Assembly: GCA_010015585.1 (NCBI GenBank)
Contig: ML975167.1
Reading direction: 5' to 3' (one strand)
Source: Eremomyces bilateralis CBS 781.70
Lineage: Eukaryota
DNA: 64,000 bases
Part shown: positions 37,625-63,785 of the stretch, one piece after another
Numbering within the stretch: the stretch's first letter is position 1
How the letters are laid out: each line of letters starts with the position of its first letter
Notes under the pieces: generated by a model
Told to the model about the DNA's origin: nothing
Database searches by the model: none
The model's input: only the letters and a program-made list of their open reading frames with translations
Made by a program: the position numbers and the translations under genes

Positions 37625-39538
37625 TCCGTGCCCCATGACCCCCCCACAACCTCCGGTTGTTGTGCTCCCACACCAAAAGTCAAACCCACGCCAAAAGTCC
37701 AATTTTACCATCATCTTCAAATCTATACACCAAACATGTCTAAACGCGTCAAATATTCAGAGGAGACTATACTCTACAGAAAGCACTCAAGAAGGCTACA
37801 GAGCAAAAAAAAGCAGGAAAATCGGTTAACGTTTCAGCGTTAGCGCGTGAGTTCCAAATCAGCCGGCCTGTCCTTCGAGGCCGCCTTGAAGGAAAAACAT
37901 CCTATACCAAACGTTCTTCGTTCGTACAAGCGACTAAACTCGGTCAGCTACAAGAAAAGGCTCTCCTAGCTTGGATCCATCAGCTTGATGAGTGGGGAGC
38001 GCCTCCTACGCCTACAGAAATCGAAGCGTGCGCCAACTCTATACTCCGAAGAAACGCCCTCGATACAACGCAGCCACCTCACGTTAGTAAGAACTGGAAA
38101 TATAAATTTATCAAGCGCCACACCCTTTCGCTTATCGACCAAAAACCAGTCAAAGACGACCGCCTACGCGCTGAGGATCTTGGACATATACAGTATTGGT
38201 TTCAACTCCTTCAGGAGCAGATTCAAGAGCATGGAATTGAGGCCCGGAATATATATAATTTCGACGAAAGTGGCTTCCGCCTTGGTGAAGGGAAGCGCCA
38301 AAAAGTAGTCAGTTTCCGACCGGGGGCAAAACGAGGCAGTCCTAGTACAGAGTCAGGCGAATCGGTTACGGATATCGAGTGTATCGCTGCTGATGGTTTC
38401 GTTCTCCCGCCGTACTTTATCCTAAAGGGCGAGAACCATCTTGAACGATGGTACGAAAACCGGATTCCAGACGATTACCGTATCAATATCTCTAAGACTG
38501 GATGGTCAAACGACCTCATTGCCTTCGATTGGATCCAGCATTTCCATCGGTATACAAGTCACAGAGCTAAGAAGGGGAAACGACTCCTTCTAATGGATAA
38601 CCATACTTCGCATCTTACCTATGAGTTTATTCAATTCTGCGAAAAAGTTGATATTATTCTTGTCCCATTTCCTCCGCATACGACCCATTTCCTTCAGCCG
38701 CTTGATGGGAAGCCGTTTCTTGCGTTAAAACACTACTTCCGGCAGACAAATACGAAGATTTCACGGTGGGGATTCGACGCGGCGGAAAAGGCCTCATTCC
38801 TTACAGAAATGCCCCAGATCCGCCAAAACGCCTTCAAATCGCGTACGATTCGACACGCTTTTAAAGAGAGGGGCCTTTGGCCATGCGATCCTGAGCAGAT
38901 TTTGCCAACCCTTCGGCAACAGGTTGACCAAGAGGCAGAGGAGCTTCACATATTCAATGGCTCGCCTCCACCGTCAAGTATTACGGCAACACCGTGCGTA
39001 TCTCCACCAAATACTATTCGTACGGTACGCCGGAAACAACAGAAGATCATAAATACGCCTGAGGCCCTACTTTCTAGCCGGAAATACCAACGTCGCGTTC
39101 GCCAAGCTACAAACTCATTGATCAAGGCGGTCGAAGAGATCGAGGCGTATAAGGGGTCCGTTTCAGCCACACAACGCCAGCAAACCAAAAAGAGTCGCCG
39201 CCAGGTTAAAACAGGACTTCGCCAGACCGGTGCTTCGTACGTTAGTGAGGCGAAACGCCATATCGAGGCGCGTGGTCAGAAGGAGCGGGAGGCGGTAATT
39301 AGGAAGGCACAGCGGGACTGGCGGCAGGAAAAACAACAGGAAAGTCAGCAGGAACCATCTCCTGCACTCGGTCAACCTACTAGTACGGAGGATCTCGGTT
39401 TTTTTATCGATTTACATCCTGAGTTCTGATATATAGATGATGGTAGTGAAATTGGACTTTTGGCGTGGGTTTGACTTTTGGTGTGGGAGCACCAACAACC
39501 GGAGGTTGTGCCGTTGTGGGGCGGTCATGGGGCACGGA
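37625..39538 (+). mobile_element. Full-length pogo/Fot1-type (Tc1/mariner superfamily) DNA transposon
   Basis: Imperfect TIRs of ~90-100 bp starting TCCGTGCCCCATGACC (left from 37625, right ending GGCACGGA at 39538), with TA target duplication at 37623-24 and 39539-40. Encodes a DDE transposase. Confidence 0.95.
37736..39429 (+). pseudogene. pogo/Fot1 transposase (HTH-CENPB + DDE_1), frameshifted near the 5' end
   Basis: The ATG at 37736 is out of frame with a stop-free frame running 37774-39429. That frame contains EKALLAWI...WGAPPT, YNFDESGF, LLLMDNHTSH and PPHTTHFLQPLD. Confidence 0.9.
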
Positions 39539-45679: not shown

Positions 45680-47043
45680 TATGCCAACGCCTTACACCGG
45701 AGTAAGAGACCTTTCTAGTCGATTGGATACTCGAGAATAACGCCCAGGGACTTCCTCCTTCCCACGCACGGGTACGTGAAATGGCCTCTCGAGTCTTCCG
45801 TCTCCAAGGCGACTCTCCACCCTTGGGAAGAACTGGGTGCCGCGCTTTCTACACCGCAATCCACGCGTTGCAACATGTGTAGGACGTAGTCTTGATGTTA
45901 CTAGACGTCAGGCTACAACGCAAGGTGCAGTTGACGGATTCTATGCGTATTTCCAGCAAGTCCAACAAAAGTACGATATCCACCTCTCTGATACCTGGAA
46001 TATAGATGAGGTCGGTGTAGGACTCGGTATATGCGCTAATTCTACAGTTATCACAGACTCGCAGAAGTCAACAGCCTATATCACTAGTCCTGTAGACGGC
46101 GAATGGATTAGTATCATCGAAACCGTCTCTAAGACCGGGCAGTCTCTCCGACCTACCATTATCCAGAAAGGCATGTCAATCCAGGCCTCCTGGTTCCCGG
46201 ATGCCCCTCCAGACTTCCATTATACAGTCTCCGAGAACGGCTGGACCTCAAATCAACTCGCATTAATCTTGCTTCGTACAGTATTCCTACCTGAAACCGC
46301 CGTTCAAGGGCGATACCGGATTCTCCTACTCGATGGACACGGAAGCCACGCAACGGTCGATTCTCTTTACGAATGCAGGATCAACGATGTTATTGCGGTC
46401 TTCCTACCTGCGCATACCTCGCATATCCTACAGCCCCTCGATCTCGCCTGTTTTTCGCCTCTGAAACGCTTCTACAAGAGCCTTATCCGCTAGAACGCAC
46501 AAGATTCATTGTCCTATACGCAGAGGCGCGCCGGAAACGCCTGACCGTCCGGACAATCAGGTCAGGGTGGAAGGCTGCAGGTCTAATGACGTGGGACCGT
46601 CAAAGGGCCTAAATAACCGCTTCGTTGCTCCGCCTGCGCCTGCTGAAAATCCACCCTCAAACGAACCATCAAGAACGCCTCCACAGACCCCAAGATCAGT
46701 CCATCCAGTTCTCCAGACCACGCCGTACAAGCCAAAACAGGTTCAGACTGCATTACGTGTCCTTAGCAGGAATATACGCGTCACAGAGACGACGAGGGCG
46801 TATATTAAGAAGGCAGGCAAGGCGATCGGAGTGCTACAGACGCGTCAGGCCGCATCAGATCTCAAAATGGAAACGCAAGAAGAAGGTACGGGGAGTTCTA
46901 AACCAACTGTTTGCACAGGTTCGAGAGATCAAGATCGCATAGAGGTAGTAAGGGGTCTGAAGGAAGACTACCAAAGGAGGCATCCCGTTTCAGAGGCCCA
47001 ATCAACGTCAGAGACTCTTCAAACGATGTCTTTCGAATCCTAG
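45680..47043 (+). pseudogene. Degenerate pogo/Fot1 transposase (second, divergent family)
   Basis: PPSHARVREMASRVF, WVPRFLHRNP, WNIDEVG, ENGWTSN, LLLDGHGSH and LPAHTSHILQPLD, with stops and frameshifts after 46491. TIRs not identified. Confidence 0.85.
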
Positions 47044-47161: not shown

Positions 47162-50100
47162 TCAAAAAAACAAACCTCCTTTGCAATGATGCGCACAGCC
47201 GAAAGGCGCTCTCATTGATTCCCTATCATGGCGAACACACTGTCTTTTGCCCCTCGCTTGCTCTGCTCCCTCAGAACAAGCTCTAACGGAACATGCTCTA
47301 TCTTCTCTGAGACGAGCCCAACGAGCGCATCCCACGCATCGATCTTCATAGCAGGATCGCAGAAATTGTATCAGTTTATACCCAATGCGCAAGAAGGCAT
47401 GTCGGCGGATTTCTGGTGTTCGCCTCTGGTGTTCGTACAATTCCCACCACCTGTCTGTGAGTCGGAGACATTCCTCAAAGGCCAATTTTGCTTCAGCATC
47501 GTCAAAGAGCCGACGAATTTGTTTGGCTTCGCATTGCTCTTTTATATTTATGTAAAAATCCTGTGCTCTTGGATCTTCTTTTTGTTCTTCCGCAGTACAC
47601 CTCAAGCACTCTTCGCAAAGGCTCATGGCTTCTTTGGCGTCATTTTCCTTTAGCGCTTGCCGAGCAACGGCTTGCAGATAAGTGGACTTGACTTCATAGA
47701 AGGCCTGTCTCGATACGCTTGGAAACGTGCATCCTCTCCAACGTTTCTCCATGTCCGCATAAAGCTTGGAGCTCTGCGTAATATTGCCATTGGCAGTTGC
47801 GTTTTGTAAGGCAGAGTAGGCATGCTCCCAGTGTTTTCTCTCTGTGTAGGTGATAAAATCGCCGACATCGACCTTTGAGATTTTTGAAATAGAATCAACA
47901 ATGGCCCTCGCTACATCGAAGTCTGCGTTTGACAGTGCCAAGTACCAATCAACTGTAAGCTTGTGGAGCACACGCTGTTGGAGTAGAGCTTCTCGGAATT
48001 TGGGAAGAAAATTAGAATCGTTTAGGAGATCTTGCAGATATTCTTCCTTTTCCACGAGGCCTTCCAAACTATCCAGCTTTTTAAAACAAAGATCAAAGTC
48101 TTTAACCTCGAATGCAGCTTTGATCTCAAGGAGAAGCGAAGCAAAGGCCTCGGAACAGTTGCACAAACACCAAAACCACTTGGGATCTTGCGCTTTTCCA
48201 CCATACTTTCTCATGATGTATATGAACCGGTCTCTGCTGATTGGAGTTGGGTAAGCAGTGTCGCCATCATTCTCTCTCAGCGTTTTGTAGTGTATCAGCG
48301 CCAAGTGAGTCTGCTCCGGAAAGAGATCAGTCATTGATTCAGCTAGGCTTGTAGCTAGATCAAGAGCGCTCTGAATGCCACCGGTGTCAGACGGAAAAAG
48401 TGTTGACGCTATTTGAAATGCCGATTTCTGCTTTTGTATTTTCTTTTTCAAGTCGGCAACGAGTGGTGGTGCATCGGAAATGAATGAGGATTTCTGAATA
48501 ATTTTTTCAACAGCTGCAACATGTTCAAGTGCCTCGCTGAACAAGAACATGTGAGCTGCGGTTGTAATCAGATTTCCGTGGGACACAACGGCTTCGTACC
48601 AGTTTCCAGTATCAATTGCATCTTCCAATGTGCCTTGCATTTGAATGCGCTGGCGGTATCCACTAAGTGTTTCGAGGTCCAGGTTTAGCAAGGAGTATTG
48701 ACTTGCTCTTTCAAGTTCACCAGAGTCTGGAAAGAATTCCTCTGCTATTGAAAACCATTGTGCGACTTTGATACTGCGATCTTGCATGATCTTCAGCGTC
48801 TCATTGTTCGCACAAGGTGAGTGAGTCCGTACATGATTCTGAATGCAATTGCTCATTTCGGTCAATATGCACTGGAGTTTTCCAATAGCAGAGTGAATCT
48901 TGTCGGACGATGAGCGATCAGAATCCTGATACTCGGCCTGTGGAGCCTTTGTCAAAGTTGTAAAAAGCCATCCATCTGATCCACTTGAAGTCAAGGAAGA
49001 CGGCTTATCATGCACGCAGGTCTCGTCCCGGCTGAGTTGGTGGCGTAGCTGCTCGTTGTATCTAACGACTGCATGCCGAATCTTCTCAGCCTCTTCCTTA
49101 TGATCAAGATCGGAAAGAACAAGGAGGTATGAGGACAGGAAAAGTACCAGCTGTAGTTCAGCCAGACAGTGTATTTGCCTTCTCTGGCAAGTTGCCAATC
49201 TTAAAGCTAATTCACAACTTAAGCTTGTTATCTCTAGTATCTTGCTTTTCAAGGATTGATCACGACCTAAGTTAGAGGAGCAACAGAAGAATAATAGAAC
49301 GCTGAAGAACCAGCCATGTCGCGTCCCCCATTTTGGAAGTTGGTTGAGTTGGATGGTGTTAAGCAATTCAACGAACTTGAGCATAAAGAAGGACCTATCT
49401 GCGATGGTTCCGCTCAAGCTGAAATGCCAGATATAGACGGAAAACAGTCGCTGAGGCCACTGGTCCACTGTAATACGTGGTCTTTCGGAAACACAAGAGT
49501 TTATACAAGTGAGGAGGTTCGCTTTGCCGCGTTCGAGCTGTTGATATAGAGGTGCGGTAACCGTGTGATAGAGGTCCATGTCAAATCGAGAAACATACAA
49601 GTCCTCAATGGTGCTGCGGACCCAGTGGTTTCGTTCCCGGTCGCCAATGTCCTTGAATAATCCGTTCGTACCAGTCTGACCGAGTCCTAGTAATACCCAC
49701 GCTCGGGCCTGTACTGTGAAACTCGGATGTATCATTGAGATCCATTCGTCATCATCCATGCGCAAATATCCTTGATCGGATGCAAGGCGTATGATACGTT
49801 TGGCTTGTGATTTGTACTCAATGTAATTTTCAATCTGTTTCGCAGGCTTGATGTCTTTGCCAGCAAACAAAATAGACAAGTGAACGAGAGCCTTTGGCGA
49901 TGGAGCTTCGTGCCAATATTGGCCAAGAAGGAGCAGGAAAGTAAATTCCCGCCTCGGCAACTGTAAGGAAAGATGACGGAGCTCTTGAGCCATAACTGAA
50001 GATTTGAAGAATGCTGATTCATATTCACAACGCGAGGTAACGAGACCGGCGTGGAGGCGCTCGTAAAGTTGTCCCCACGGCACCCTTAAAATCGATTGTC

Positions 50101-52192
50101 CTCGAAGTATTTCTTTGATTGAAGCTGGAATTCCTTTGAATAAATCGACCACTTGTTCCAAGCTGTTGAAATCTTCATGTGTCCAACAGTCAATATCCTC
50201 ACCCGCTTCGCGAAGAATCCGTTCCGCAAGTTCAATGGCGTCGACCATTTCAAGACCTTGAAGTTCGTAGCACGGTGTATCTTGCTTTTGGCCGATGTAC
50301 ATTTCGAGCCAGTTGGTCTCAGAACACCTAGCGGAACAAATAACATAATTTCTTTTGTTCTCGCTAGGAGCCATGAAATATGAAAGCAACGAGTTGAGAA
50401 ACGAATGATGTTCGAAACGTTGTGTCTTGACTTGATGATCTGACACGCTTGATGGATGGCCAATTCTGAGTGCTGTAGCTGACCCATCCAGGATGATGAG
50501 TGTATTGAAAGAGGGGAGGATATTCATAATAATTTGTTGCACAGTGCTCTCGTCATATGAATTCACTGACAGGGAGGTGATAGTCCAAAGCCGTGGTTCG
50601 TAGATTTTGGCATCGGCATTGAATAGTTGTCGAAGAACCGAGACGCTGAGTTCTTCTCGAGACCCGTACTGCATTGTTTTGAAGTCAATTATGATGCTGA
50701 CGTCAATGAAAGCAGTTGATTTCCATATGTCGCATGCGTATTGTAGAAATGCAGTCTTTCCAACGCCAACTGGCCCTTCGAGGTATATCCGGCCTTTCTC
50801 CAATAGTTTCGTTTCTAATCGGAGAAGGTCAAACTCTCTTCCTGTTATTGTTGGTTTATCCAAATTCTTGAGACTTTCATCAATGTCCATAAAGGTCTGG
50901 GGGGTCTCAAGGAGTGTTTCAGTAGTGACCAAATTGGGCGTCGAGAGGATGAAATCGCAACTAGCGGAATATACCACAGGCACGAACCAGTCCATATGGG
51001 TTCTCGTAAGCCCAAATCTTGCAGGGCGGCTGGAATGTATGCGAAGCATACGTCGTGAAATAGCAGCGGCGCGAGTAAAAGACATTCCACCTATGAAAAG
51101 TTCATGGTAGAAAGAGCCCAAGAATATCTCTGCTGCTCCGCTTGAAACCTTGAACGACATGGCAAGTACATTCCGAACGCCATGCGTGTAAAAAACCTTG
51201 GCAATATTCCCATCGTCTCCGCAATTAGCTCTGGCAGATTCGCAGGCATTGAGAACGACATAGGGGATCTTGTATTGACTCAGTGTTCTCGCCACCATAT
51301 GAGCTGCTATGGGCGTGGTACATTCTAACTCGGGGTGACTGAAGTAAAGGATTCCAAATTTCGACGCTTTGCCAATCCGCGTGCCAACTCTGCCATGGAG
51401 GTCGAAATGAACGATGTGATAGTAATTCGCACCATGGATATCTTGAGACCGTTGCAAATGCTGCTTGAAAGATGTAAAAGTTCCGGGTCGCACGACTTCT
51501 ACATTCAAACGCAGATTGTTTGCCTTGCTCTTCGACATGCTCTTCAATATTTGCTGAACTCTGATTAGAACACCAGACGCGAGGGACGGATTTACATCGT
51601 TGTAGAAGTTCGCATTTTTCGAAGTGTGCCTTGCTACCACTAGGAGTATGTTGATCGACATGCATTTGACAACACCTGGTTCGCAGGAAGGTGGTTGAAT
51701 AGGCGATAGTTGTACGGTAGAAGACTCGGGAAAAGAACGAGTGACGACAACATCCAGTTGATCATTCCACGTCGCTGGGACCTCTAGTAATTCCCAGTGC
51801 AACTGGTGTATCGTACTTTCATGTTTGTCGAAGATACACGCCTCGTCGAGGATCTCGATCAACACGGTGCGGTGGGTACTTCCTTGAGGAAATTGAGCGA
51901 CGATTGTTTGAAGATGTAGCTGCTTGGAGAGATATGCAGCGTAGCTGCCAAGGAGATATTCAGCATCCTTCGCGAGGTCGACTGAAAAGGGCGATCGGCT
52001 AGTGAATTCCTCGAGGTACCAACGGCAAAAGGTCTTCTGTTCTTGCTTGAGAGGATCCTCAAGTAACGCGTTTTGCACCACTCTTTTCTCGTCCAAGAAC
52101 ACGTCAATAGTCCAGCTAGAGGTCGCTTCTCCGAGACTACCAGCTGTTCGTGCCACAATCCTCAATTTTATAGGAGGCGAAGTGGAAGCCAT
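47162..52192 (-). CDS. NLR-like protein: CHAT (caspase-like) protease + STAND P-loop NTPase + helical (TPR-like) C-terminus
   Basis: Intronless ORF, open from 52378, with MASTSPP at 52192 as the likely start. CHAT motifs: LHWELLE, NILLVVAR, YHIVHFDLHG (catalytic His), VVLNACESA (catalytic Cys), VLAMSF and DWFVPVVY. NTPase motifs: ITGREFDLLRLE, Walker A GPVGVGKT, Walker B LIILDG. Confidence 0.88.
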   Translation of the reverse strand: MASTSPPIKLRIVARTAGSLGEATSSWTIDVFLDEKRVVQNALLEDPLKQEQKTFCRWYLEEFTSRSPFSVDLAKDAEYLLGSYAAYLSKQLHLQTIVAQFPQGSTHRTVLIEILDEACIFDKHESTIHQLHWELLEVPATWNDQLDVVVTRSFPESSTVQLSPIQPPSCEPGVVKCMSINILLVVARHTSKNANFYNDVNPSLASGVLIRVQQILKSMSKSKANNLRLNVEVVRPGTFTSFKQHLQRSQDIHGANYYHIVHFDLHGRVGTRIGKASKFGILYFSHPELECTTPIAAHMVARTLSQYKIPYVVLNACESARANCGDDGNIAKVFYTHGVRNVLAMSFKVSSGAAEIFLGSFYHELFIGGMSFTRAAAISRRMLRIHSSRPARFGLTRTHMDWFVPVVYSASCDFILSTPNLVTTETLLETPQTFMDIDESLKNLDKPTITGREFDLLRLETKLLEKGRIYLEGPVGVGKTAFLQYACDIWKSTAFIDVSIIIDFKTMQYGSREELSVSVLRQLFNADAKIYEPRLWTITSLSVNSYDESTVQQIIMNILPSFNTLIILDGSATALRIGHPSSVSDHQVKTQRFEHHSFLNSLLSYFMAPSENKRNYVICSARCSETNWLEMYIGQKQDTPCYELQGLEMVDAIELAERILREAGEDIDCWTHEDFNSLEQVVDLFKGIPASIKEILRGQSILRVPWGQLYERLHAGLVTSRCEYESAFFKSSVMAQELRHLSLQLPRREFTFLLLLGQYWHEAPSPKALVHLSILFAGKDIKPAKQIENYIEYKSQAKRIIRLASDQGYLRMDDDEWISMIHPSFTVQARAWVLLGLGQTGTNGLFKDIGDRERNHWVRSTIEDLYVSRFDMDLYHTVTAPLYQQLERGKANLLTCINSCVSERPRITVDQWPQRLFSVYIWHFSLSGTIADRSFFMLKFVELLNTIQLNQLPKWGTRHGWFFSVLLFFCCSSNLGRDQSLKSKILEITSLSCELALRLATCQRRQIHCLAELQLVLFLSSYLLVLSDLDHKEEAEKIRHAVVRYNEQLRHQLSRDETCVHDKPSSLTSSGSDGWLFTTLTKAPQAEYQDSDRSSSDKIHSAIGKLQCILTEMSNCIQNHVRTHSPCANNETLKIMQDRSIKVAQWFSIAEEFFPDSGELERASQYSLLNLDLETLSGYRQRIQMQGTLEDAIDTGNWYEAVVSHGNLITTAAHMFLFSEALEHVAAVEKIIQKSSFISDAPPLVADLKKKIQKQKSAFQIASTLFPSDTGGIQSALDLATSLAESMTDLFPEQTHLALIHYKTLRENDGDTAYPTPISRDRFIYIMRKYGGKAQDPKWFWCLCNCSEAFASLLLEIKAAFEVKDFDLCFKKLDSLEGLVEKEEYLQDLLNDSNFLPKFREALLQQRVLHKLTVDWYLALSNADFDVARAIVDSISKISKVDVGDFITYTERKHWEHAYSALQNATANGNITQSSKLYADMEKRWRGCTFPSVSRQAFYEVKSTYLQAVARQALKENDAKEAMSLCEECLRCTAEEQKEDPRAQDFYINIKEQCEAKQIRRLFDDAEAKLAFEECLRLTDRWWELYEHQRRTPEIRRHAFLRIGYKLIQFLRSCYEDRCVGCARWARLREDRACSVRACSEGAEQARGKRQCVRHDRESMRAPFGCAHHCKGGLFF

Positions 52193-52322
52193 GTTTCTCC
52201 ATGTGAAGGTGGGATTTATTGTCGTGTAAGTCTCTTCAATAGAAAGAGTAGGTTGAGGTAACAGAAGTTGTCCGTTCTCACCAGATACGGACGAGGATGA
52301 TAGATATGGAATCTCAGTGCCT

Positions 52323-52382
52323 GATGAAACAGGCCCATGCCAGATGAAACAGGCCCATGCCAGATGAAACAGGCCCATGGCA
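52323..52382. repeat. 20-bp tandem repeat GATGAAACAGGCCCATGCCA x3
   Basis: Units at 52323-52342, 52343-52362 and 52363-52382 (last has one mismatch), lying between the divergent CHAT-NLR and gasdermin-like genes. Confidence 0.95.
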
Positions 52383-52573
52383 GTCTTCCTGGCCGATATG
52401 TCAGGTCTATTGCCCTAACACAGCGACAACAGAGGGCAATATAAATAACGCAATCACCCCTTGGGACTAACAAGGTCTCAACACTTTAGAGACCTGCAGC
52501 ATTTCCTTCTTACTTCGGGCCCCACTCGGTTCCAAACAAGGCTCAGGTCTCCTGCGATATCAGTTTCAGCCGC

Positions 52574-53539
52574 ATGGTCCTCCCAGAAAGGGAAGAAATC
52601 AAGATGGCAGGGAAACGATACTTTATTCTGGAAGAAACAATCGCCGCAACAGAGATCGAGAGTATGATGGGTCGTGTTGTTATCTCGAAGACGCTGCCAC
52701 TCAACAAGTTTGCGCCATTCCCTGCCATGTCTCCCAATGAACCTTCCCACAACACCAACGATATCATACCTTCAATTCTTCCGAGTCCTTCGCTATCCTT
52801 AAACAGAAAAGAATTCTTTTCTGCCGTTCGAGGACACGAACTTCACGTGGCACTAAGTGCTATTCTTGCCGCGGATATTAAGAGCACGCGAGAGGGCTCG
52901 GCAACGTTAGACAGCCAACAAGTAAAGCGATATACGCTTGACAATCCAGAGCAATACTTCCGTGCTCTTTTACAAAACGAACTGTACAGTCGGGACATGC
53001 GCACTATTCTCGAAGCTAGTAGTACGAAGCGAGGATACTTTGTCACCGGGTTTCTCACCACTACGGAAACCACCTGGAATAGAGAGACTAACCGGTCGAA
53101 GAAAGGAGGCTTCTCAACTTCTCTCCCTGTTTCGCAATTGACAGGATTGCCTCTCCCAGTAATTTCCGACTTAAGAGTGGGATCCGCGCATGAGAGCACC
53201 ACCCAGCATGGGCAAGATATGAGTGTGCCTGCAGAAGAGATCTTTGCAATGTCCTACTCAATTGTCAAACTGGAATACAATTTCAAGCTTTCACTTGCCA
53301 ACCCTATCATAAAAACACCTGTCTTTGGGCCTCCAAAGAGAGCAAAAGCGCGGCATCTTGCTTTGAGTCAAGAGAGTGATGAGGAGATTGAGGATGGCTC
53401 AGATGACGATGATAACAAACACAATAACGGACATGTAGCTTGCAAATGGCCCCGAGGCTCTACTATCAAATTTATCTGGGACAATGGCGACGAGCTTCTG
53501 GGCGATATTCCGGGAACCAGTTTTCTCTTGAATCGGTAG
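52574..53539 (+). CDS. Putative fungal gasdermin (RCD-1/HET-Q1-like pore-forming protein)
   Basis: 321 aa (311 from the ATG at 52604). N-terminal YFIL...MGRVV...P, central YFVTGF and late IFAMSYSIVKL motifs, two Ser/Thr-rich beta-hairpin-like segments and an acidic C-terminal tail. Adjacent to a CHAT protease gene. Called from motif order and context only. Confidence 0.68.
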   Translation: MVLPEREEIKMAGKRYFILEETIAATEIESMMGRVVISKTLPLNKFAPFPAMSPNEPSHNTNDIIPSILPSPSLSLNRKEFFSAVRGHELHVALSAILAADIKSTREGSATLDSQQVKRYTLDNPEQYFRALLQNELYSRDMRTILEASSTKRGYFVTGFLTTTETTWNRETNRSKKGGFSTSLPVSQLTGLPLPVISDLRVGSAHESTTQHGQDMSVPAEEIFAMSYSIVKLEYNFKLSLANPIIKTPVFGPPKRAKARHLALSQESDEEIEDGSDDDDNKHNNGHVACKWPRGSTIKFIWDNGDELLGDIPGTSFLLNR

Positions 53540-55004
53540 CTTCCTTTGATCTCAAGGAGAGGGAGGGAAACGGCACTGATGTATCATTGTTCCTCTGGAT
53601 CCTTATCAAGTCTATAGTATTTCATCACGTACGGTGTCATAAAGAACCATCGCTCAGGTGACTTCTGTAATGATACGAAACCCTCACAGACAGGTAATCT
53701 GAAGAACGGGTTCATTCGTGATATCGAAGCTATGGAAGAAGGGAAGAAACGGTGCATCTTACGATGCAGGTAAAACTATCTATACTGGTGGTCACGTGAC
53801 CACGCCCACCAGAGCCATTTTGTAACAGCTTCCATGGTAAGGGCGGGCCCGCAAAGCCCAACTGTACGCGTCCACGTCGCTACGGGTGGAAACGTCGTTA
53901 GAGAAGAGTTCTCTGATGATGGCCAAGTACAGTGGCGATGAAAGAGACGCGTGCGCCGCGCGCAGGTCGCTGGCGATGACCGTAGTGTCCCTACAGTACC
54001 ACCGCCAACGCGACCGTGTCTACTGCCTCCGTCTAGACGCGGTGTCCTTTCATGAAGGGAGGCTCATCAAGGGAAACTGGGATACGAAAACCACCCGATG
54101 GTGACCTATCTAGCTCGTAGCTAGATCCTGAAGCTTGACTTATCATCAGGTGGATGAGGACGCGTCCTAGGTCTCCAACAGGACACACTTGGGCTCGCAC
54201 CTACTCTGGGACTATGCATACGCGTAGCGAGGGTTTGGGACAATCCTGATCTAAAGAACTCGTTAAGGCTAACTTCTATAGATCTGGGCGAACTTTGTTA
54301 AGGCCGGAGGGCCTCCTCGCAACGGGAGCACTTGTTAAGGCCTCCCTATCGAAACTTGTTAATGCCACAACGACACGATCTTACCGGGTGAGCGATTTAG
54401 CGAACATGATAGCTTACAGAAATGGAGTTACAGGCCAATTCGGTGGAGAGGAATCACAGGGTAAGCTCCTGGTGGAGGCTCGAGGGAGACACAGACCAGT
54501 CGCCTAGATCGATACAATGGGAGAATCACGGGCCAGCTTAAGAGATGGAGGACGCGAGTCTGGTTAGTAGGATAAGGTGGTGGATGTCGCCCGGCGTGGG
54601 ACATCTACGCGGCCACAGCACAGCAGCAGCCATACGATATTTCCGGCTACCTTATCCTGCAAGACACGGTCGGCCCATCAGAGGGAGACCTCTATGGGCA
54701 ACGCGAAACGGCTATATTTATAGCTGCGGGGCGTAGTGCGTGGTAGCCACTGCTGGCTCCGAGGACCTCACCCTTTTAATGGGCTCTGACCCTCCGTGAA
54801 CCTGAGAGCCGGCGGGATCAATCCCTGGCTGGAGAGACTACCACGTAGCTCGAGAGAACGCATGCGCATGTCTGGACACAGAGAAACAGGACTAGTCGCT
54901 AGGATAGAACGCTGGTGATATATGCTTAAGGAGCAAACAGGCGTTACACAGGCAGGAACCCTTTTGGGCGGGGGGCGACTGGATAAGCAGAGGCTTAGAC
55001 AACC

Positions 55005-55550
55005 GTGGCAGGTGTCTGGATAAGCAGACAGATGATACCTGCTATTGTATATAAACGCAATATAATGACCTGCCCGGAGGCCGCCTGCAACTGGATCCTT
55101 CAATTCTGTGTCGACCGGAAGGCGTCGATCATTGTCAACGGAAGCGAATCAGCAGTCTACAGCATCCAGCACGCAGGACTACCGCAAGGCTCCCCTCTAA
55201 GCCCAACCCTTTTCCTTTTCTACCACTCAGATCTCGTCCAGAGCAAACATACTGATCGCGGATGGTCGCTAGCATTCGTGGACGACTACTCTGCATGGGT
55301 AGTCGGGCCAAATGAGCGCGAGAACGCAAGGAAGGTCCAGGCGGTTATCATTCCGAAGGTCGAACGATGGAGCTGTACTAGCAGAGCTACCTTCGAGCCG
55401 AGCAAGACCCAATACATCCACTTTACAAGGCTCAAGAAAACGACCGCTTATAAGACCTCAGACCTTACCTTCGCTGGCCAATCGAATACCGCCCAATAAG
55501 AAATCAAAGTCCCAGGGGTTACGCTAAATCAGAAGCTCTCCTTCCACTTG
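55005..55550 (+). mobile_element. Non-LTR retrotransposon (Tad1-like) reverse transcriptase remnant
   Basis: NWILQFCVDRKASIIVNG...GLPQGSPLSPTLFLFY...AFVDDY...ATFEPSKTQYIHF. The region ~53800-55000 upstream may be the decayed remainder. Confidence 0.88.
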
Positions 55551-57241: not shown

Positions 57242-57635
57242 CGATACGATTGTTCATTGGCATTGAAATCAACGAGGACATCTTGCGACAAGTTGCCCGG
57301 GTTCTGTTTCGTGAGGCTAGTACGGTAATGCTGGATTACGATAAAAGGCTATTTGGGTTAAGGAGCCTGATTGGGCTCGGTCAGCATGGGATGAGGAGCC
57401 CATTTATGTGAAAGGCCAGTTCGGGACGATGGCCAGTTTGACCCAGCCACAAGTTCTTGCCTCTTATATATACGGAATGCCCCGAGAAATGGCTATGCTT
57501 TTTATTATTCTTCTACTCTTGTCTAGCGGCAAATCGTAGTGTTGCGCAAAGGGAATGGAACTTGGTTGGTGAGAGGGTTTAACCCATGAGAACAACTTGC
57601 TGGGTATGCTCGCCTAGGTTGATCCCTTATGCATC
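57242..57635. repeat. ~400-bp dispersed direct repeat, copy A
   Basis: 57242-57315 matches 59913-59985, and 57356-57635 matches 61012-61309 (shared GGTTAAGGAGCCTGATTGGGCTCGGTCAGCATGGG and TACGGAATGCCCCGAGAAATGGCTATGCTTTT). Confidence 0.92.
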
Positions 57636-58452: not shown

Positions 58453-59737
58453 ATGGCGCACCCACTTCGCCGGCACCGTTCATCCCTGGAAGGAGTTATC
58501 GTTCCTTTGTCGCAACCTTTGAAGCCTGAGGACCGTGACCTTGCGATTCCAATTTTCGACAAGATTATTCTGCACTTTGAGCCTTCTCAGGCAACGGACA
58601 GCAGCTACAAACCAGTCACTCTTATCAGACTCATGAAAAACGAGATTTCTGAAAAAGACGAATTCTTGAGCTTCTTTTTATCTTTTATCCAGCAAGACCT
58701 GCTTGGGGAAAGTGATAGAAGAACCGGTCTTGATCGAGTCTTATCACACCTTACTAGCTTTTCTAGCTGGTCAGCTGAAGAGAAAAACGCTTTAAGTGGA
58801 AGTCTTGTTGCATTCGCCAAGTATTTGGTAGACAATTTCTTCTTACCCCGTAAGTATCTAGACTACGCGGGATCTAAAACACTGACAGTTCTTAGTAAGA
58901 GCGTTGGCAGGTAAAACTCCTCAACCTACTCCAGCTCTTTCTCGAACTAAAACGCCCGAAATCGCCATCGGCACCCCTCAACGTGTCTCGAACCTGCGAA
59001 AAGCCTGCCTTATTCGTGACCGCTACCGATGTGTCATTACTCGGAAATTCGACGCCCAAGAAGGCCAGAATCGATATAAAGAGCATGGACGTGATGTGAA
59101 AGACGATGATGGCAACTCACTACTTCCAGAACGTGATACTATGACGTTTTTGGAAGTCGCTCACATAATACCTCACTCTCTCAAGTCACTTACTGGTGAA
59201 GGAGGTGAATGGAGACTTGTAAGTAGGCATATTATGGCCAATCATTCATCCATATCTGACAATATTTAGGCAGATCCAAAGCAAATTGCTCACAGAATCC
59301 TAACAATGTTCAACCCCGGCGCTATCCACCTAATTGATGGCGTTGATATTGACCGACCGATGAACGCGTTGACCCTAACACACGACCTTCATCGGCTATT
59401 CGGTAACTTTGAAATTGCGTTTGAACCGGTTGGTTCCCACCCGCATACATACCGAATTGACTACGTAGATCCAGACCGCATGGGTCGGGTTGAAAGGCTC
59501 CCTGTCACTGTTAGCCTTTTTCTTACACCTGATCAAAGTATAGAACCGCCTTCTCCTTATCTCCTCAGGGTTCATAGTGCTATCGGACGCATCCTTCATC
59601 TTAGCGCCGCCGGTGGTTATATTGATAACTTTCTTCGGGATCTAGAGGAGATGAAGGGTAGTGAAGTGATGCTAAACGGATCCACACGTCTCGATGACTA
59701 TGTTTGGTTTAGGTTTAGGGAGATGTGTGTTTATTAG
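58453..59737 (+). CDS. HNH endonuclease-domain protein (HNH_2 type, second family)
   Basis: Introns 58850-58895 and 59219-59269 join three ORFs in frame. Motifs LRKACLIRDRYRCVITRKFD, LEVAHIIPHSL, IDRPMNALTLTHDLHRLFG and PPSPYLLRVHSAIGRILHLSAAGGYID. Confidence 0.9.
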
Positions 59738-59912: not shown

Positions 59913-61309
59913 CGATAGGATTGTTCATTGGCATTGAAACCAACAGGGGCATCTTGTGACAAGTTGCCTGGGCCTGTTTCGTGAGTCTGGTATTCCGTAC
60001 GCTCTACGGTACTCCGTACTGGACTGCGATTGTTATGGTTATGGCGGATGCATCAATAGGGGCATCCTGCCTTGATGCCTCAGGCATATATGGTCAGGTG
60101 ACCACCTCATCTGTATCTAAGTTACCTCAGGCTCTCAGGCCCTTCAGTGGGACGCAAAGGCGCTAACCCAAAATGGGTCACCCACACGAAGGGCCTGAGA
60201 CAAATTTGAAATTTTTTGGTGGCGTTGACGTTCGTGGCATGCAAATTGCCCCTCCAAGCTCCGCTGCGAACTCGTCTCGAAATCGACATCAAGTCAAAGT
60301 ACGAAGCCAAACAGCGCGTCCAAGTCGGCAACCAAACATATTCCTAAATCCCCGATCTCATTAGGCGAGGTGGCTAAGTAGTCATGAAGAATCCTGAGAC
60401 CTGAGTAATAGTAGTAGGTTGCAGCATTGATATTGGAGATGCGAGAACTATTTAATAACTAACAGCGAACCTTAAGGACGGAAGAGAGTGAGTTCCTTCT
60501 GCCTATTGATTCGTATATGCTTGCTGAACTGACGTAGAACTCTTGGACAGCCGATCTCTGAATATGGTTTCTAAAGGATCTTCTTCTTCGACTGTAGCAG
60601 AAAATGGCGCATCTGCTCCATCTTCATTGTTACCGCCTCCAACATCGAAGGCAAGGACTCGCGATCAGGGGGGCGCGGTAGTTTGTGTAGCAGAATGGTC
60701 GATAGCTGGGATCCATAGCTCCGAATTCCAAATTTTTGAGATAGAATTGGTCTATATTGCGCGTAGAATCATTCCATGAAGCTGATGATGTTGACCTGAA
60801 TGCTCACCAATTTGCATGCCACGAACGTCAACGCCACCAAAAAATTTCAAATTTGTCTCAGGCCCTTCGTGTGGGTGACCCATTTTGGGTTAGCGCCTTT
60901 GCGTCCCACTGAAGGGCCTGAGAGCCTGAGGTAATATCTAAGCTCTAATACGTCACCTCCATAGTAATCTACATCTTCTCCTAACTATCTGTCTTTGCAA
61001 CAGCGATAAATGGTTAAGGAGCCTGATTGGGCTCGGTCAGCATGGGGAGCGGAGCCCATTTAGGCCAGAGGCCTGTTTGGGACGACGGCTAGATTGACTC
61101 GACCACAAGTTATAACTAGCCTTTTATATATATCTATACGGAATGCCCCGAGAAATGGCTATGCTTTTATTATTTTTCTACTTTTGTCTGGCGGCAAATC
61201 GTAGTATTGCGCAAAGGGAATGGAGCTCGGTTGGTGAGGGGGTCCCAGGGGTTTAACCCTTCAGGAGAACGTACTGAGTATGTTCGCCTAGGTTGATCCC
61301 ATCTGCATC
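59913..61309. repeat. Dispersed direct repeat, copy B (interrupted by ~1 kb including the TIR element)
   Basis: Blocks 59913-59985 and 61012-61309 align by eye with copy A at 57242-57635. Confidence 0.88.
60122..60934. mobile_element. Non-autonomous TIR DNA element (813 bp, 127-bp TIRs, 8-bp TSD)
   Basis: 60122-60248 is the reverse complement of 60808-60934. TATCTAAG is duplicated at 60114-60121 and 60935-60942. No recognisable transposase inside. Confidence 0.95.
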
Positions 61310-63785
61310 GACAAGTCAAGTAGCGCCGAGCTCACGGAGGCTATCAACTCTATGTTTCGCTGGTACCGGGATGCAGCAAAATGCTATGTGTATCTCTGAC
61401 GTTTCAACAGGAAAGCACACCCGGTCTTCAGAGGTCCTATGGGAATCGGCGTTTAGACAGAGTCGATGGTTCACCAGAGGCTGGACACTACAAGAGATTC
61501 TTGCTCCGCGATCGGTCGAGTTTTTCTCCCGAGACGGCAAGCGACTTGGTGATAAAGAGTCGTTAGAACAGCAAATTCATAAGATCACTGGGATTGCAAT
61601 TGACGCACTTCGAGGACATGTGTCTCAATTCAGCGACAATGAGCGAATGTCATGGGCAGAAAAGCGAGAGACCACGAAGGAAGAGGATCAAGCATATTGC
61701 CTCATGGGAATCTTTGACGTCTCCCTACCAGTCACCTATGGCGAGAGGAAAAGAAAAGCACTCGAACGGCTTCGAGAGGCGATCGATAAGCGTTCAGGCA
61801 ATATGCGAGGTAATTCAACCGCCGAATTTTTTAGTTAGCTGGCTAATCTGCGAAGTGGAATGGAACGACAAGGAACTAGAATGTATGCAAGCCCTGCGTA
61901 ATTCAGCTTCCGACTACGAGCAGTTCAAAGACAGGAACGATAGCCGACTTAGAGATACCTGCCGATGGGTTCTCCGTCATGACAATTTCCGAAACTGGAA
62001 AGACAGCAGCTCCTCAAGTCTTCTTTGGATATCTGCGGATCCTGGATGCGGAAAATCTGTTTTCTCAAAATCTCTTGCCGACGACCTCAAACACACGGAC
62101 GGTCACACAACTTGTTACTTCTTCTTCAAAGACGACGACGACGTACAGAAAAGTGCAGTTACAGCGCTTGCGGCACTACTCCACCAGTTCTTTCGGCAGA
62201 AACCAGCACTTATCAAACACGCTATGTTGGATTTCACCGCTAATGGAGATAAACTTTCTCAATCATTTCATATACTCTGGAGTATTCTAATAAAGATAGT
62301 GGCTGATCGGAATGCCGGAGAAGTCTTTTGTGTCTTAGATGCCCTCGACGAATGCGCAGAAGCAGGGCAGTATCAGATTATTAACGCTCTCAGTTCATTC
62401 TACCAGCAAGCAAGCTCTAGAAACAATACATCTCGACTTAAAATATGTATCACTAGTCGTCCTTACCCAGACATCGAACGGCGCTTTACTGATCTTACTT
62501 CTAACTTTCCTACGATTCGGCTACACGGTGAGCAGGAATCAGATGAAATCAGTCGTGAGATCGACCTAGTCATCAAATGGAGAGTATCTCAACTCGGATC
62601 TGAGCTCAAGCTCAATAATTCAGAATAGTCAAATCTCGAAACAGAGCTGTTAAAGATGAACCACCGAACATACCTCTGGTTAACACTCATTTTCGATATC
62701 ATTCGCAAAATGATTCGACCGACAAGTCGGAAACTGAAGGCAGTTATTAGTGACCTTCCGTCTACAGTTAATGAAGCATACGAAGCGATTCTTGCAAAAA
62801 TCGAGGATGATCGACCACAAGCACGGAAATTGTTCTCCATCGTTGTTGGAGCAACCAGGCCTCTTACGCTGAGGGAAATGAACATCGCTCTAGCTATAGA
62901 AGACCGTCATCGCTCCTATAACGACCTTGAACCTGATCTTGACTATGAAGAGAGGTTTAAAGCGTCGGTGAGACACCTCTGCGGGCTCTTTGTGACTGTT
63001 GTGGATCAAAAGGTCTATCTGATCCATCAGACTGCAAAAGAATTCCTTCTCGCGAAAAGTGAGGCCGCTACTATTGGATGGAAACATTCTCGTGTTCCAA
63101 CGGATTCTGAGACCCTTATGGCCAGAGCATGCCTTATATATCTTTCATTCACTAAATTTGATGGAGCGACAGATCAGATCTCTGCAGCAGTCAAACACGG
63201 CTACTTAGATTATGCGGCAGGTTTTTGGGCTGCCCACTGTCGAAAAGTGCAGCATAGTGCAGCCGAGCAAATGTCGGACTTGGTTTTCCGAGTCTGCGCT
63301 ACACGATCCCAGCGGTTCAAGACTTGGTTCGATGTGTACTGGCGGATGGCTCACCAGTGGCAGTCCAATCACAGTTCACAAGCATTTTGATGGTAGAGTC
63401 ATATTTTGGGCACGAGGGTATCGTCAAGCTACTGCTCGAGGCCAAGGCCGACGCCGACTCGAAGGATGAGTACTACGGCGGGGCGCCGCTATGGTGGGCG
63501 GCCGAGAACGGGCATGAGGGTATCGTCAAGCTGCTGCTTGAGGCCAAGGCCGACGTCGACCCGAAGGATAACGACGGTCTGACGCCGCTGTCGGGGCCGG
63601 CAGCAAACGGTCACGAAGGTATCGTCAAGCTGCTGCTCGAGGCCATGGCCGATGTCGACTCGAAGGATAGCGACGATGTGACGCCGCTGTCGGGGGCGGC
63701 CGCAAACGGGCACGAGGGTGTCGTGAAGCTGCTGGAGTCCTTCAGCGGTATATCATTTGCAGCCTCCTCCCCACCCACTACCTAA
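61304..63785 (+). pseudogene. HET-NACHT-ankyrin NLR, 5'-truncated and disrupted
   Basis: HET domain from CIDKSSSAELTEAINSMFRWY...SRWFTRGWTLQE. NACHT WISADPGCGKS / VLDALDEC, then LIHQTAKEFL and 3-4 ankyrin repeats. Frameshifts near 61397 and ~63370; in-frame TAG at 62626-62628. Confidence 0.92.

Follow-up and report, generated by a model that had tools for sequence, protein, structure and literature searches.

We analyzed a 64,000-nucleotide (nt) stretch of contig ML975167.1 from the ascomycete fungus Eremomyces bilateralis CBS 781.70 (GenBank assembly GCA_010015585.1), referred to below as the window. Within it, two divergently oriented genes encode a predicted CHAT protease fused to a nucleotide-binding oligomerization domain (NOD)-like receptor (NLR) and a fungal gasdermin. 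A first-pass annotation made from the letters of the window had described two intact open reading frames (ORFs) diverging from a spacer of about 400 bp. Both frames were found uninterrupted. The minus-strand frame (47162 to 52378) encodes 1738 aa when read from its first ATG, and the plus-strand frame (52574 to 53539) encodes 321 aa. With the starts placed as described below, 411 nt separate the start codons of the CHAT-NLR gene (52192) and the gasdermin gene (52604). CHAT-NLR residues are given in the numbering of the raw ORF from its first ATG, unless stated, and gasdermin residues are counted from the start of the 311-aa protein. The features of the pair are as follows.

47162 to 52192, minus strand: HET-Q2-like CHAT-NLR gene, a single uninterrupted coding sequence of 1676 aa, with the ATG at 52192 (M63 of the ORF) and the stop codon at 47162 to 47164
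51023 to 51679, minus strand: protease domain of the CHAT type (caspase-like, clan CD), the part matched by Pfam (PF12770, ORF residues 234 to 452)
51395 to 51397 (His) and 51242 to 51244 (Cys), minus strand: CHAT catalytic codons, both checked
50207 to 50788, minus strand: NACHT-like P-loop NTPase module of the STAND type, with Walker A at 50753 to 50776 and Walker B at 50483 to 50500
47357 to 50098, minus strand: helical C-terminal region (AlphaFold model), presumed sensor, of no recognized repeat family
49418 to 49597, minus strand: in-frame 180-nt segment cut as an intron in the deposited model, read here as coding and conserved in relatives
47165 to 47356, minus strand: Cys/His-rich C-terminal tail, dropped from the deposited model, with a motif conserved in relatives
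52193 to 52603, no strand: divergent intergenic spacer of 411 nt, containing a 20-nt tandem repeat and TATAAATA at about 52438
52604 to 53539, plus strand: intronless gene for a 311-aa fungal gasdermin of the HET-Q1/RCD-1 type, starting at M11 of the raw ORF
52604 to 53326, plus strand: predicted pore-forming gasdermin domain, residues 1 to 241 (alignments to gasdermin pore chains end at 246 to 250)
53327 to 53368, plus strand: conserved linker G242-P-P-K-R246-A-K-A-R-H-L-A-L254-S255, a candidate protease recognition or cleavage zone
53369 to 53536, plus strand: acidic, predicted disordered C-terminal tail, residues 256 to 311, with the hydrophobic end SFLLN, presumed to be inhibitory

The start of the CHAT-NLR gene was obscured by the tandem repeat in the divergent promoter (20-nt unit, 3.3 copies, 95% matches, 52318 to 52383), every copy of which carries a minus-strand ATG in frame with the gene. 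Because the repeat supplies these upstream in-frame ATGs, the raw ORF is 62 codons too long; the extra N-terminal codons come from the repeat, were present in no relative, and were rejected as coding sequence. The start was placed at M63 (nt 52192), where the relatives begin, as does a 100%-identical NCBI protein (P0031; 1539 aa), which is listed under Eremomyces bilateralis CBS 781.70 as a hypothetical protein with a CHAT domain. This deposited model lacks ORF residues 928 to 987, and its last 91 residues are swapped for a short, unlike end. ORF residues 63 to 1738 of the window are collinear from end to end with P0033 (residues 1 to 1671 of 1673), P0032 (residues 4 to 1661 of 1663), and P0034, in agreement with the earlier description of the gene as intronless. 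The two segments dropped from P0031 (47165 to 47437 and 49418 to 49597) are conserved in the relatives. Among the 60 residues encoded by the second of them, N194, L196, C202, W214, and P215 (numbering of alignment A2; ORF residues 954 to 975) are invariant or at least 90% kept across 25 aligned sequences. Because the full frame aligns end to end and the removed segments are conserved, we consider the gene to have no introns and take the two in the deposited model to be false. Contigs of the locus from a public run (X1, kind unrecorded) had no joints, and one of them (49482 to 49814) was collinear across the annotated junction at 49597/49598; since the run may be DNA, these contigs say nothing about splicing or expression.

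The CHAT-NLR protein carries a protease module and a nucleotide-binding module in one chain, as had been proposed from four short motifs. All four lie where they were first read, with HFDLHG, LNACES, GPVGVGKT, and LIILDG at ORF residues 324 to 329, 376 to 381, 535 to 542, and 627 to 632, respectively. The Pfam CHAT family (PF12770) was matched with an E value of 1.5e-12 (48 bits against a cutoff of 24). Conservation was counted over the first 900 to 950 residues of an alignment of 91 sequences (the window ORF and 90 relatives). The catalytic His328 was present in 91 of 91 sequences and Cys379 in 89, the Walker A Lys541 was present in 90, and the Walker B Asp631 was an Asp in 80 and a Glu in 10. 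The catalytic His-Cys dyad is intact, and the protein is predicted from these residues to be a protease. At an E value of ≤1e-3, Pfam searches of 24 full-length relatives recovered CHAT in 24, NPHP3_N in 15, AAA_16 in 15, NACHT in 14, and nSTAND6 in 6. The region before the CHAT domain gave nothing usable in Pfam even at an E value of ≤10. A full-length NLR profile searched against PDB sequences returned only designed helical proteins and weak P-loop matches to NLRP9 and NAIP5 (E values of 0.075 to 0.12).

The remainder of the CHAT-NLR protein is predicted to be a long helical region, as the first reading had supposed. An AlphaFold model of ORF residues 761 to 1738 (m0e4824d19545; nt 47165 to 50098, Cys/His-rich tail included) was built from a 25-row alignment with a mean predicted local distance difference test (pLDDT) score of 75.3. 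These last 978 aa were modeled almost wholly as helix, apart from several short strands close to the beginning. Searched with Foldseek, the model had no match at an E value of ≤1e-3, and the best weak rows were TPR/HEAT-type solenoids (Ctr9, TTC7B, and Ski3). No usable Pfam family was found in the C-terminal 1014 aa at an E value of ≤10, and TPR, ankyrin, or WD40 families were found in none of the 24 full-length relatives (E value of ≤1e-3). The architecture is a CHAT domain followed by a NACHT-like NOD and then by a long helical region that could be assigned to no named family of repeats.

At its extreme C terminus, the protein bears a Cys/His-rich tail with the motif C-x2-C-A-R-W ... H-D-R ... 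P-F-G-C-x-H-H-C-x-G-G-Y-C-F, for which Pfam gave no match at an E value of ≤10. The motif occurs in 13 of 25 aligned rows, the window among them. In a regular-expression search of the 90 relatives, its last part was found in 19 and both halves were found in 17. The window tail ends in GGLFF versus GGYCF in the relatives, so that the final Cys is missing. The tail is thus a feature of a subclade of these NLRs.

The smaller gene encodes a fungal gasdermin, as predicted from the order of its motifs in the first-pass annotation, which had given it 310 to 320 aa. Its start was set at M11 of the raw ORF (nt 52604), the Met at which 29 relatives begin. These 29 close relatives are from ascomycetes and share 37 to 58% identity with it. 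A profile of the close relatives, searched against a library of 1.84 billion proteins, recovered 1,018 cluster representatives at an E value of ≤1e-3 and 393 at an E value of ≤1e-10. The AlphaFold model of the protein (29-row alignment) had a mean pLDDT of 64.5 and a predicted template modeling score of 0.62, with core blocks at 83 to 95; its low-confidence parts are the long hairpins 67 to 95 and 166 to 201 and the tail 249 to 311. The structure comparison that the first-pass annotation had proposed for this protein gave a gasdermin fold. When the model was compared with the PDB by Foldseek, ranks 1 to 12 were all gasdermins. The RCD-1 pore (8jyz_A) was first, with an E value of 1.7e-8, followed by 8jyz_B, GSDME, a Trichoplax gasdermin, GSDMD, GSDMA3, bacterial gasdermins, GSDMB, and RCD-1-2. 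A Foldseek-independent comparison with 48,161 representative chains (VIA-align) also placed 8jyz_A first (Z score of 10.9, 207 residues aligned, root mean square deviation of 3.9). The next matches were the bacterial gasdermin 8sl0_A (Z score of 9.6) and RCD-1-1 (8jyx_B; Z score of 9.1), and further gasdermins, among them the bacterial 7n50 (Z score of 6.8), ranked ahead of MACPF/CDC proteins down to a Z score of 5.4. Among PDB sequences, the matches of a 63-sequence profile (A3) to characterized fungal gasdermins were weak but ranked at the top, namely, RCD-1-1 (E value of 7.5e-4), RCD-1-2 (3.7e-3), and the HET-Q1 pore 9uv9_A (0.13); these three fungal gasdermins made up three of its eight matches at an E value of ≤10. 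The sole PDB-sequence match of the single gasdermin query, to actin (E value of 0.76), was taken as chance. On the strength of the modeled fold, the protein is a fungal gasdermin that is predicted to form pores.

The divergent arrangement of the two genes is retained in distant relatives, a point on which the first-pass annotation had made its proposal depend. Metagenome contigs were scanned with the gasdermin family alignment, which yielded 32 loci (26 to 53% identity), and each locus was searched by tblastn with the window NLR. A CHAT-NLR match was found at 19 of the 32 loci, always upstream of the gasdermin, on the opposite strand, and starting from the NLR's N-terminal portion. Among these 19, the match at L028 is a fragment, both short and rearranged. 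Where an intact gasdermin frame (293 to 311 aa) was accompanied by at least 900 nt of upstream sequence, a CHAT-NLR was present without exception (17 of 17 loci). Eight of the 13 unpaired loci have less than 450 nt upstream and so cannot show a partner. The other five (L007, L010, L011, L026, and L030) have 902 to 3781 nt upstream, L011 being borderline (902 nt), and a scan of their ORFs found no protease domain. Their gasdermin frames are short (217, 236, 65, and 119 aa in L007, L010, L011, and L026, respectively), and L030 is a partial match only. It is as if gasdermin copies that lose the CHAT-NLR partner decay; introns may also account for the short frames. Four gasdermin and four NLR relatives that were obtained in protein searches lie on contigs of the same sizes (9975, 12811, 22221, and 15940). 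At one metagenome locus (L004, 2760 to 3604, minus strand), a gene for a Piwi-domain (Argonaute-type) protein lies about 1.6 kb downstream of the gasdermin relative.

Between the pore domain and the tail of the gasdermin lies a linker with the family consensus G-P-P-K-R-A-K-A-H-H-L-A-[LMF]-G. It follows the last strand of the pore domain, is the best-conserved stretch outside the core, and is succeeded by an acidic run and a variable tail. In the 29 close sequences, G242 and R246 were each present in 27, A253 in 25, and G255 in 24, and position 254 was L, F, or M in all 29. The linker was also compared in 17 distant metagenome relatives, namely, the loci with a CHAT-NLR neighbor and a complete linker, which amount to about eight lineages because several are near-duplicates. 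Position 254 was hydrophobic and position 255 was small in 17 of 17, whereas Ala253 and Arg246 were present in 15 and 12, respectively. Beyond the linker, residues 249 to 311 have a pLDDT of <50, with a short strand at 305 to 308, and the tails of the relatives likewise carry an acidic run and vary in length. Our guess from this conservation is that the CHAT protease would cut the gasdermin within residues 242 to 255. Some bacterial CHAT-type proteases cleave after Leu or Met, which would fit a cut after residue 254.

The pair and the hypothesis that attaches to it are already in print, so that the first-pass annotation, although correct in its reading, was not the first to offer it. Clavé et al. 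(2022, PNAS; PMC8851545) reported that 353 (19%) of 1,884 fungal het-Q1 homologs lie near a CHAT-type gene and that some HET-Q2-like proteins are NLRs, and their Fig. 6 depicts a CHAT-carrying NLR-like protein activating a HET-Q1 homolog. A cluster in the sense of that paper has at most 10 kb between the gasdermin gene and a gene with a protease domain; the two start codons of the pair in the window are separated by 411 nt. Row 549 of its Dataset S1 lists the exact Eremomyces pair as a CHAT-type het-Q1/het-Q2-like cluster. Row 443 of Dataset S2 describes the larger protein as "CHAT; C-ter P-loop_NTPase; 1128 aa," in agreement with the architecture found here, and the N-terminal sequence given there is the same as that of the window protein. 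For Eremomyces bilateralis, Dataset S3 counts a single gasdermin gene and none of the HeLo or HELL type, so that, as recorded there, the gasdermin of the pair is the only one of the species. The point about CHAT-NLRs and gasdermins is repeated after Clavé et al. in PMC9815663, and the structure of the HET-Q1 pore is the subject of PMC13475620. As to experiments, the first-pass annotation had cautioned that CHAT-NLRs are little characterized in fungi, and the accessible record bears this out. A 2025 review (PMC12881547) calls protease-effector NLRs "a small subset," and the sole experiment cited in the part available is that on TPR-CHAT. In that experiment, the isolated CHAT domain of the Podospora anserina TPR-CHAT protein Q2L-6 processed the neighboring gasdermin Q1-6 (PMC8851545), and this truncated protein is the only such case in the sources consulted. 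To these, our analysis makes modest additions, namely, a correction of the deposited gene model, a motif at which cleavage may occur, and the conserved Cys/His-rich tail of an NLR subclade.

Several known systems resemble the Eremomyces pair in part. Like Q1-6 and Q2L-6 of Podospora anserina, it consists of a gasdermin gene beside a CHAT protease gene, and the gasdermin has a short C-terminal extension. However, Q2L-6 has an N-terminal TPR region, a C-terminal CHAT domain, and no NOD, whereas the Eremomyces protein has an N-terminal CHAT domain followed by a P-loop NOD and a helical region. In the Podospora anserina pair HET-Q1/HET-Q2, HET-Q1 is cleaved after F238 and loses a tail of about 40 aa (PMC8851545), and the Eremomyces linker (242 to 255) lies at a comparable distance from the N terminus. 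HET-Q2 is a subtilisin-like S8 serine protease, in contrast to the CHAT cysteine protease of the Eremomyces pair. RCD-1 of Neurospora crassa (8jyz, 8jyx, and 8jyy) is the best match both in structure and in the wider profile, with 12 to 14% identity in structural alignments. Bacterial operons of gasdermins with caspase-like or CHAT proteases follow the same sensor-protease-gasdermin logic, but their proteins are relatives only at the level of the fold. In the mammalian pathways that lead to gasdermin D, the caspase is a protein apart from the NLR and is brought in by way of adaptor domains, whereas the protease and the NLR are one chain in Eremomyces (PMC8851545).

Taken together with the published mechanism, the pair likely constitutes a two-gene module of regulated cell death of the HET-Q1/HET-Q2 kind, in which a STAND switch would control a CHAT protease, the protease would cut the gasdermin, and the gasdermin would form pores. 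A ligand or other trigger would free the NLR from autoinhibition, and nucleotide-dependent oligomerization would gather and activate the CHAT domains. The protease would then cut within the gasdermin linker, either after residue 254, at the best-kept site H-L-A-[LMF]|G, or at Arg246, and the tail would be removed. The freed N-terminal gasdermin domain, of roughly 245 aa, would oligomerize into membrane pores and bring about cell death, as a means of defense or of allorecognition. Gasdermin-mediated death under the control of an NLR with its own caspase-like protease is the least elaborate arrangement known for a pathway resembling pyroptosis, and it ties together fungal, bacterial, and animal immunity. 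The Eremomyces pair is a clean, compact, and intronless example that is suited to a direct test of the published model.

A number of observations weigh against this interpretation. The NACHT match of the larger protein (residues 531 to 724) is below the Pfam cutoff (E value of 0.014; 15.7 bits against 26.7). The smaller protein matched no Pfam family at all, and a Pfam gasdermin family was absent from all 29 aligned members, in which Pfam gave only scattered chance matches in one or two members each; fungal gasdermins, however, are not defined as a group by a Pfam match. The narrow profile of the 29 close sequences (A1) had no match among PDB sequences, and for this reason the wider profile was needed. 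RCD-1, according to the work of its depositors, is reportedly not activated by a protease, and a gasdermin fold alone is therefore no proof of control by cleavage. RCD-1 is activated by the pairing of two allelic forms and is not known to be encoded beside a protease. As for the site of the cut, the position would be a guess in either case: of the two candidates, residue 254 is more consistently conserved, whereas Arg246 is missing in 5 of the 17 CHAT-paired relatives (near-duplicates included; roughly eight lineages). A search of the full-text literature, in which subscription journals were not covered, found no experiment on a fungal CHAT-NLR together with its gasdermin, and the portions of the literature at hand contained no cleavage, toxicity, or pore assay of this pair or of any fungal CHAT-NLR. 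A complex prediction for NLR residues 63 to 500 with the gasdermin scored 0.00 in both runs; alignments were not used and controls were not included, and the result is evidence neither for nor against an interaction.

Part of this evidence would also suit a gasdermin that needs no proteolysis to act and that, for instance, pairs with an allelic form or a partner gasdermin, as reported for RCD-1. The CHAT-NLR would then be directed at some other substrate, and the two neighbors would not be protease and substrate. RCD-1 provides the best structural and sequence matches, and cleavage of the Eremomyces gasdermin is something that we infer. We nevertheless regard a cleavage-free gasdermin as highly improbable, given the divergent pairing, which was seen in 17 of 17 intact relatives whose upstream sequence was long enough to show it and which extends to identities as low as 26%, the conserved linker and 56-aa tail beyond the pore domain, and the processing of a gasdermin by its CHAT neighbor in Podospora (PMC8851545). 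Another reading concerns the state of the locus, in that the pair, though intact in sequence, could have no function at present and simply be carried along, silent or disabled not long ago, in an accessory region rich in transposons. Its neighbors include a DDE transposase with a frameshift and fragments of a reverse transcriptase and of HNH genes, and the Cys/His-rich tail encoded in the window lacks the last Cys kept in relatives. Yet the frames of 1676 and 311 codons are uninterrupted, all catalytic and nucleotide-binding residues are retained, and both proteins are collinear with their relatives over the full length, and we give this reading very little credence.

The role of the pair is a separate matter. 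The same machinery could serve conspecific allorecognition (heterokaryon incompatibility) rather than defense, which would be compatible with a protease-controlled gasdermin module as set out above. Both HET-Q1/HET-Q2 and RCD-1 are allorecognition systems (PMC8851545), and in Aspergillus fumigatus the heterokaryon incompatibility locus hetB is based on a CHAT protease, for which the available text shows no gasdermin target (PMC11138114). On the other hand, het systems have been argued to derive from broader immune pathways (PMC8851545), and in the single genome analyzed here polymorphism cannot be judged. An allorecognition role in place of defense is possible, but we hold it to be the unlikely one. 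On a further reading, which we consider unlikely, this clade of CHAT-NLRs would represent a one-chain inflammasome with two hitherto undescribed features. The Cys/His-rich, possibly metal-binding tail of the NLR, which is trimmed off in gene models like that deposited, would serve as a latch or sensor, and the protease would recognize the motif H-L-A-[LMF]|G before the acidic tail of the gasdermin. If so, the protease would prefer a hydrophobic P1 residue, like some bacterial CHAT-type proteases and unlike caspases.

The first-pass annotation had placed the pair in a region where many neighbors are decayed. This holds for the flanking pieces of mobile elements, which are broken, but not for the window as a whole, because positions 1 to 36 kb carry ordinary housekeeping genes. 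The first 36 kb encode a RasGEF, a CHY/RING protein, AFG1, a kinase with HEAT repeats, and Pex19. Beyond 37.7 kb lie an intact Tc5/pogo element, a methyltransferase, the broken DDE transposase, the CHAT-NLR/gasdermin pair, the reverse-transcriptase fragment, the HNH fragments, and a second NLR. The decayed elements that flank the pair are as follows.

45780 to 47043: DDE_1 transposase, frameshifted and split over two frames
54999 to 55499: reverse-transcriptase fragment, 166 aa
55970 to 56422 and 59270 to 59737: two HNH_2 fragments

The Tc5/pogo-type DNA transposon at 37662 to 39492 is apparently intact, with a 561-aa frame containing HTH_Tnp_Tc5 and DDE_1 domains, and is bounded by 57-nt inverted repeats that are 93% complementary. 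The second NLR (61278 to 63785) has an NPHP3_N/NACHT module followed by winged-helix and DUF7069 regions and ankyrin repeats. The sequence of this NLR is divided among three reading frames, which could reflect either introns or breakage, and it may extend beyond 63785. Segments of 60 to 100 nt at 57242 to 57635 recur at 59913 to 59972 and 61012 to 61309, about 3.66 kb apart and with 84 to 91% identity; their position just upstream of the second NLR suggests a local duplication. A perfect 127-nt inverted repeat has its arms at 60122 to 60248 and 60808 to 60934, with 559 nt between them.

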